Assembly (NCBI RefSeq): GCF_029227855.1
Contig: NZ_CP074356.1
Reading direction: 5' to 3' (one strand)
Length of the DNA: 64,000 nt
From: Escherichia coli
Lineage (GTDB): Bacteria; Pseudomonadota; Gammaproteobacteria; Enterobacterales; Enterobacteriaceae
The first letter of the stretch is position 1. Every line of letters begins with the position of its first letter. The notes below the pieces were generated by a model. It did no database searches and was not told the origin of the DNA. It was given only the letters and a program-made list of their open reading frames with translations. This document shows positions 49,330-50,156 of this stretch, piece after piece. Made by a program: the position numbers and the translations under genes.

Positions 49330-50076
49330 ATGGCATTACTGGAAATTTGCTGTTACAGCATGGAATGCGCGCTAACGGCGCAGCAAAACGGCGCAGACAG
49401 AGTTGAATTATGCGCAGCCCCAAAAGAGGGGGGCTTAACGCCGTCGTTGGGGGTGCTGAAATCCGTGCGCCAGCGGGTGACGATCCCTGTGCATCCAATT
49501 ATTCGCCCACGCGGTGGTGATTTTTGCTACAGCGACGGTGAATTTGCCGCCATTCTTGAGGATGTGCGCACAGTCCGCGAATTAGGTTTTCCTGGACTGG
49601 TGACGGGCGTTCTCGATGTTGACGGGAATGTCGATATGCCACGAATGGAAAAAATAATGGCTGCTGCCGGTCCGCTGGCAGTGACTTTTCATCGCGCCTT
49701 CGATATGTGCGCTAACCCTTTAAATACACTCAATAATCTTGCGGAATTGGGCGTTGCTCGGGTACTGACATCAGGGCAAAAATCAGACGCACTGCAAGGT
49801 TTATCAAAAATTATGGAACTTATTGCCCATCGTGATGCTCCAATCATTATGGCCGGAGCAGGAGTCCGTGCAGAAAATCTGCACCACTTCCTCAATGCCG
49901 GAGTGCTGGAAGTCCATAGCTCCGCGGGAGCGTGGCAAGCCTCACCAATGCGTTATCGTAATCAAGGATTGTCCATGTCATCAGATGCACACGCGGACGA
50001 GTATTCGCGTTATGTCGTAGACGGGGCGGCGGTTGCTGAAATGAAAGGAATCATTGAACGCCATCAGGCCAAATGA
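49330..50076 (+). CDS. cutC: Copper homeostasis protein CutC
   Basis: 248-aa TIM-barrel ORF. Confidence 0.9.
49815..49843 (+). promoter_or_regulatory. micL: sigmaE-type promoter inside cutC (MicL promoter)
   Basis: GGAACTT-N16-TCCAA matches sigmaE consensus GGAACTT-N16-TCnAA. Confidence 0.55.
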
Positions 50077-50156
50077 TTTTTACCGTTGCATCATGTCGCC
50101 CAATATGATGCTTGCTCGTACCAGGCCCCTGCAATTTCAACAGGGGCCTTTTTTTA
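49850..50156 (+). ncRNA. micL: MicL sRNA (sigmaE-dependent, Lpp-repressing), overlapping the cutC 3' end
   Basis: From predicted TSS to the terminator aggcccctg-caatttcaa-caggggcct plus T7 is about 307 nt, matching the reported ~308-nt MicL; boundaries approximate. Confidence 0.55.

Follow-up and report, generated by a model that had tools for sequence, protein, structure and literature searches.

Does the sigma-E promoter motif lying inside the coding sequence of cutC in this Escherichia coli strain mark the start of the small regulatory RNA (sRNA) MicL and, if it does, how are phenotypes ascribed to cutC to be read? The question was raised by an initial annotation and is taken up here for the whole stretch of DNA analysed, a window of 64,000 nucleotides (64 kb). 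As judged from its sequence, the region is, with very high confidence, an E. coli micL gene. MicL is a published sRNA, described in K-12 in 2014 and already known, and the copy considered here has nothing unusual about it.

Identity of the locus

A scan of the whole window places the Rfam MicL model RF02654 at 49848..50155 on the plus strand. Its score is 365.5 bits, where the gathering score is 56, with E = 2.9e-110, and the match covers model positions 1-308 of 308 with no truncation. At the homologous position in K-12, RefSeq annotates the ncRNA micL (b4717) as a feature of 307 nt, corresponding to 49849..50155 here. Both the full-length model match and the K-12 gene bear out the name given to the locus by the initial annotation, and its transcript length of about 307 nt stands by the RefSeq feature, which starts at 49849; the primary transcript as given by Guo et al. 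and by Rfam begins at 49848 and is 308 nt long. The end that had been placed at 50156 lay one base too far, as the U-tract at the cutC terminator stops at 50155, and it is with the last base of this tract that MicL ends.

[quoted passage not shown] The neighbouring genes are argS (46801..48534, minus strand), yecM (48744..49316) and torY (from 50488), and the order argS, yecM, cutC, torY matches that of K-12, there read on the opposite strand. No feature of the sequence contradicts the micL identity. The partners lpp, rpoE, hfq and rne of this strain lie outside the window and are assumed to be present from species-wide conservation.

A sigma-E-type promoter within cutC

The sigma-E motif claimed for the interior of cutC is indeed there, on the plus strand and within the open reading frame, as a -35 element GGAACTT at 49815..49821, a single match in the window, and a -10 element TCCAA at 49839..49843. 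The spacer between them (49822..49838) counts 17 nt, not the 16 first assigned to it, and although the promoter does sit within coding sequence, its description as "in-frame" carries no meaning, since a promoter has no frame. Adjoining the -35 element on its upstream side is an A/T-rich stretch, TTTATCAAAAATTAT (49800..49814, plus strand), partly conserved across genera, which may act as an UP-like element; A/T-rich sequence upstream of sigma-E -35 motifs has been described by Rhodius et al. (PMC1312014). A sigma-70 promoter scan returned nothing relevant near 49815-49848.

The geometry of the promoter is within the ranges of sigma-E promoters. For a set of 28 mapped sigma-E promoters, with GGAACTT, TCAAA and the start base as reference points, Rhodius et al. 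(PMC1312014) found spacers of 15-19 nt with 16 preferred (17 nt here), a preference for discriminators of 5-6 nt (4-5 nt here), distances from -35 to +1 of 25-28 nt, mostly 26-27 (26-27 nt here), and a preference for a purine as start base (A at 49849 here). A longer spacer was accompanied by a shorter discriminator in their set, and it is this combination of long spacer and short discriminator that the micL promoter (PmicL) presents.

Taken by itself the count of the motif is only suggestive: the 64 kb window holds one GGAACTT-N15-17-TCNAA where 0.06 would be expected, and at least one match turns up in 6 of 100 shuffles. What makes the motif decisive is that it sits just upstream of a full-length MicL match and is identical to the K-12 promoter. 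In an ungapped alignment of 49780..50170 with K-12 the two sequences are identical from -68 to +30, so that the promoter through +1 is unchanged, in agreement with the proposed identity. In K-12, a reporter fusion and Northern blots of cells overexpressing rpoE established sigma-E dependence, the PmicL fragment proved nearly as strong as PmicA and PrybB, and hardly any MicL or its processed form, MicL-S, remained once the -10 and -35 elements carried point mutations (Guo 2014). We infer that MicL is expressed in this strain and that its transcription in vivo is sigma-E-dependent.

Conservation of the promoter across genera

How the promoter has fared in related bacteria was read from 19 loci retrieved with a 21-base pattern lying inside MicL-S, a sample that is tied to the 21 positions of MicL-S so fixed and does not amount to a census. 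The loci come from Citrobacter, Escherichia, Salmonella, Pseudenterobacter, Lelliottia and Huaxiibacter; Klebsiella, Enterobacter and Cronobacter, which Guo et al. named, are absent from this pattern-based sample. The promoter comparison rests on 19 sequences, the window and the 18 loci that cover the promoter, and 20 sequences were aligned in all, with cutC of the related loci 64-98% identical to that of the window.

Six of the seven columns of the -35 element are invariant, GGAACT being kept always and with it the synonymous third position of the GAA codon, and all five columns of the -10 element are invariant in 19/19 sequences. The spacer retains a constant length and is otherwise free to vary in sequence, with 2/17 columns invariant. 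In the MicL 5' coding part the figure is 113/228, within MicL-S it rises to 57/59 (about 97%) at positions not fixed by the pattern, and in the 14 nt that follow the U-tract it falls to 0/14. Across these 19 sequences and six genera the pattern is of the shape expected of a promoter.

One might suppose instead that GGAACTT...TCCAA simply reflects the conservation of CutC residues (M-E-L ... A-P-I), or has arisen by chance, and that no working promoter is present. The E, L, P and I residues are conserved in CutC, and the shuffles and the expectation given above leave some room for coincidence. Yet third-codon positions within the two elements are invariant in 4/5 cases against 13/95 elsewhere in cutC, and the spacer drifts in sequence while its length holds. 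Moreover, the T of TCCAA is kept while the codon that overlaps it varies between Ala, Val and Thr (GCT/GTT/ACT), and the retention of this base through a change of residue indicates that selection at TCCAA acts on the DNA signal and not on the protein. The supposition is already contradicted by the K-12 reporter and mutation data, obtained on identical sequence, and it deserves practically no credence beside a functional sigma-E promoter.

The processed form and its target

MicL-S, as defined by Guo 2014, is the 80-nt processed form at 50076..50155 on the plus strand, and it is identical to that of K-12 at 80/80 positions, an identity that takes in the lpp-pairing core, both stem-loops and the U-tract. 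Its minimum free energy fold consists of a 5' stem-loop at 50085..50115, a terminator hairpin at 50123-50149 and then U7 (50149-50155), and its energy of -28.8 kcal/mol compares with -15.3 kcal/mol in shuffles (z = -5.15). The first of these elements is stem-loop A of the tandem pair to which Updegrove et al. assign the direction of RNase E cleavage. The second belongs to the intrinsic terminator common to cutC and MicL (50123..50155, plus strand), which has a 9-bp stem and a 9-nt loop; it went unlisted in a simple terminator scan that allowed loops of 3-8 nt and is shown by direct folding. The terminator is invariant in 20/20 aligned sequences, and 8/8 counted pairs never vary in the 19 cross-genus sequences. 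Its U7 tail would be expected to make it an Hfq-binding 3' end, and Hfq association of MicL has been reported in K-12 (Guo 2014).

[quoted passage not shown] Within it the core GUACCAG (+43 to +49; 50118-50124) is a perfect 7-nt complement of K-12 lpp coding positions +16 to +22, and pairing with K-12 lpp extends around this core. In 5424/5426 E. coli genomes the lpp 5' segment shows 99% identity or more, and because it is so nearly invariant in the species the target site is almost certainly intact in this strain, whose own lpp is outside the window. The case for pairing rests on the perfect complementarity of the 7-nt core and on the compensatory mutations of Guo 2014, not on duplex energy: an unrestricted RNAduplex calculation that paired the whole of MicL-S with the 5' region of lpp yielded -46 kcal/mol, a value that 28/500 shuffles equalled, and is uninformative, as the method ignores intramolecular structure.

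With regard to processing, Updegrove et al. (2018; bioRxiv 10.1101/341578) report that tandem stem-loops 3' of the cut site direct the cleavage of MicL. These determinants are intact here, and RNase E would be predicted to cleave this copy as well. Their integrity also suits a different account, in which the internal promoter is minor in this strain and MicL-S comes mainly from RNase E processing of the yecM-cutC mRNA, as a purely processing-derived 3' UTR sRNA. [quoted passage not shown] It is accordingly very improbable, and MicL-S produced chiefly from a transcript started at the internal promoter is the reading retained here.

The unit under selection

A further question is whether the conserved block after cutC is anything more than a transcription terminator devoid of regulatory RNA function. 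The block does hold a canonical intrinsic terminator. Terminator sequences normally drift, and here conservation extends beyond the hairpin to all 80 nt. In Pseudenterobacter, Lelliottia and Huaxiibacter, the most distant genera of the sample, the cutC stop codon is a TAG that precedes the invariant block GATTTTTACCG by some 14 nt (L009:3244-3558, L018:9414-9728, L020:7306-7620), and conservation starts at the processing site all the same; the -35 and -10 elements for sigma-E, about 230 nt upstream, are still preserved. The block also carries the lpp-pairing core, and pairing was proven in K-12 on identical sequence. A terminator and nothing else is scarcely conceivable. Since cutC stops short of the invariant block in these three genera, the conserved unit is, on this evidence, the sRNA and not the gene end, and the 5' conservation boundary of MicL-S is uncoupled from the stop codon.

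The long form presents a different picture. Across the 19 cross-genus sequences covariation lends no real support to the structure that Rfam gives for the full 308-nt form, 82.1% of cells pairing against 81.5% in shuffles, and the 5' helices of the long form in the Rfam model pair in only 42-79% of cells, several of them being broken outside Escherichia. In its 5' part MicL seems to evolve in the manner of coding sequence, and MicL function as understood here does not rest on the secondary structure drawn for the long form in the Rfam model.

MicL-S, by comparison, is near-invariant even in its loops and in stem positions able to covary, and this in genera whose cutC coding sequence is only 64-82% identical to that of the window. 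There is a slim chance that this invariance exceeds the needs of lpp pairing, Hfq binding, the RNase E stem-loops and termination, and that a further conserved partner, either CsrA at a site overlapping that for lpp or a second target, may be involved; separately, and with the same slim chance, the three substitutions of this allele that change CutC may alter behaviour specific to the long form. Later work has described CsrA binding to MicL, possibly overlapping the lpp-pairing site, and repression of sigma-E sRNAs by NsrR has likewise been reported.

The allele within E. coli

This MicL and that of K-12 (b4717, RF02654) share the same locus, at the cutC 3' end between yecM and torY, the same promoter, the same MicL-S and terminator, and the same length of 308 nt. 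They are identical at 303/308 positions and differ by five single bases, at +31, +47, +100, +141 and +167, all in the 5' part that overlaps the coding sequence. Two of the substitutions are synonymous and three alter CutC (N189 here against D in K-12, A220 against E, and V229 against I). A processing effect would not be expected from any of the five, because a section heading in Updegrove et al. (bioRxiv 10.1101/341578) states that 5'-end sequences are without effect on MicL cleavage. The three CutC-changing substitutions alter the long form of MicL as well, and could change behaviour specific to it.

Among 5,426 complete E. coli genomes, an 871-nt cutC query (49330-50200) matches 5,425; strain JNEC-KY178 agrees with it at every position (100%), and only 200 genomes reach 99% identity. 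A query that matches nearly all genomes, and few of them this closely, marks the window as E. coli with a minority cutC/MicL allele. Identity of at least 99% is found for the promoter fragment (-65..+20) in 4,661/5,424 E. coli genomes, and for MicL-S in 5,316 of the 5,423 with a match. The cutC gene is a 100% match to the annotated cutC of E. coli NZ_AP045174.1, the closest genome, in which micL is left unannotated by the automated (PGAP) annotation; in K-12 it is annotated.

Other features of the window

Several observations concern the surroundings of the locus. At the start of torY (50462-50490), the K-12-type ATG at 50462 is followed by a run of five A residues (50471-50475) where K-12 has six, so that the frame opened there is shifted and meets a TAA at 50486-50488. 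In the frame of torY itself an ATG has arisen through a T-to-A change at 50488, and the resulting open reading frame encodes 357 aa (50488..51561) against 366 aa in K-12, lacking the N-terminal MRGKKRIGL, and PGAP calls the short torY in the closest genome. On the other side of the locus, flhE (46353..46748, plus strand) ends 52 bp from argS; the segment that in K-12 holds yecV and yecT between the two is missing here, and likewise in NZ_AP045174.1.

Farther away, two little-studied E. coli sRNA families gave Rfam matches above threshold, both on the minus strand: C0465 at 36512-36589 (111.6 bits, full length) and ES036/CssrF at 8062-8103 (42.1 bits against 37.6). A tRNA cluster at 17988-18290 on the plus strand, with Gly(GCC), Cys(GCA) and Leu(UAA), is presumably glyW-cysT-leuZ of K-12.

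Proposed mechanism

The steps of MicL action were shown in K-12 (Guo 2014; Updegrove 2018) and are carried over to this strain by virtue of sequence identity. When the envelope is stressed or the cells are in stationary phase, RNA polymerase carrying sigma-E would start at about 49848 from GGAACTT-N17-TCCAA, embedded in cutC codons, and would produce a transcript made up of the final 229 nt of cutC, with its stop codon, and the 3' UTR, ending at the cutC intrinsic terminator at 50155. From this 308-nt RNA the 80-nt MicL-S would be released by RNase E, and it could be cut from the longer cutC mRNA as well. Together with Hfq, MicL-S would then pair through approximately +19 to +49, with GUACCAG as the core, with codons 6-16 of the lpp mRNA, leading to a block of translation and decay of the message. 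[quoted passage not shown]

Relation to other small RNAs and significance

MicL belongs with MicA and RybB, the other two sigma-E sRNAs of E. coli, with which it shares sigma-E promoters of similar strength and the Hfq-dependent repression of abundant outer-membrane proteins that constitutes the repressive arm of the envelope stress response (Guo 2014). The differences are equally plain, as MicA and RybB have intergenic genes of their own and target many porins, whereas MicL lies inside a protein-coding gene, undergoes processing and has lpp as its single reported target (Guo 2014). In its release as an active short form by RNase E and in its use of the terminator of the host gene MicL resembles 3' UTR-derived sRNAs such as CpxQ and processed sRNAs of the ArcZ type; the sRNAs differ in their RNase E sensitivity (Updegrove et al., bioRxiv 10.1101/341578). 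MicL has, in addition, its own promoter inside the open reading frame of its host. CpxQ is known only as a product of processing of the cpxP mRNA.

The suggestion of the initial annotation that cutC phenotypes may reflect the sRNA coincides with a conclusion already published, namely that the copper sensitivity of cutC mutants is due to the loss of MicL and not to the loss of CutC protein (Guo 2014). Deletion of cutC in this strain, or an insertion in it, would remove a sigma-E-controlled repressor of Lpp, and would do so silently, as micL is missing from the PGAP annotation of the closest complete genome. Envelope or copper phenotypes of cutC mutants could consequently be misassigned to the CutC protein, a point established in K-12 in 2014, and cutC phenotypes in strains without a micL annotation are best read with MicL in mind.
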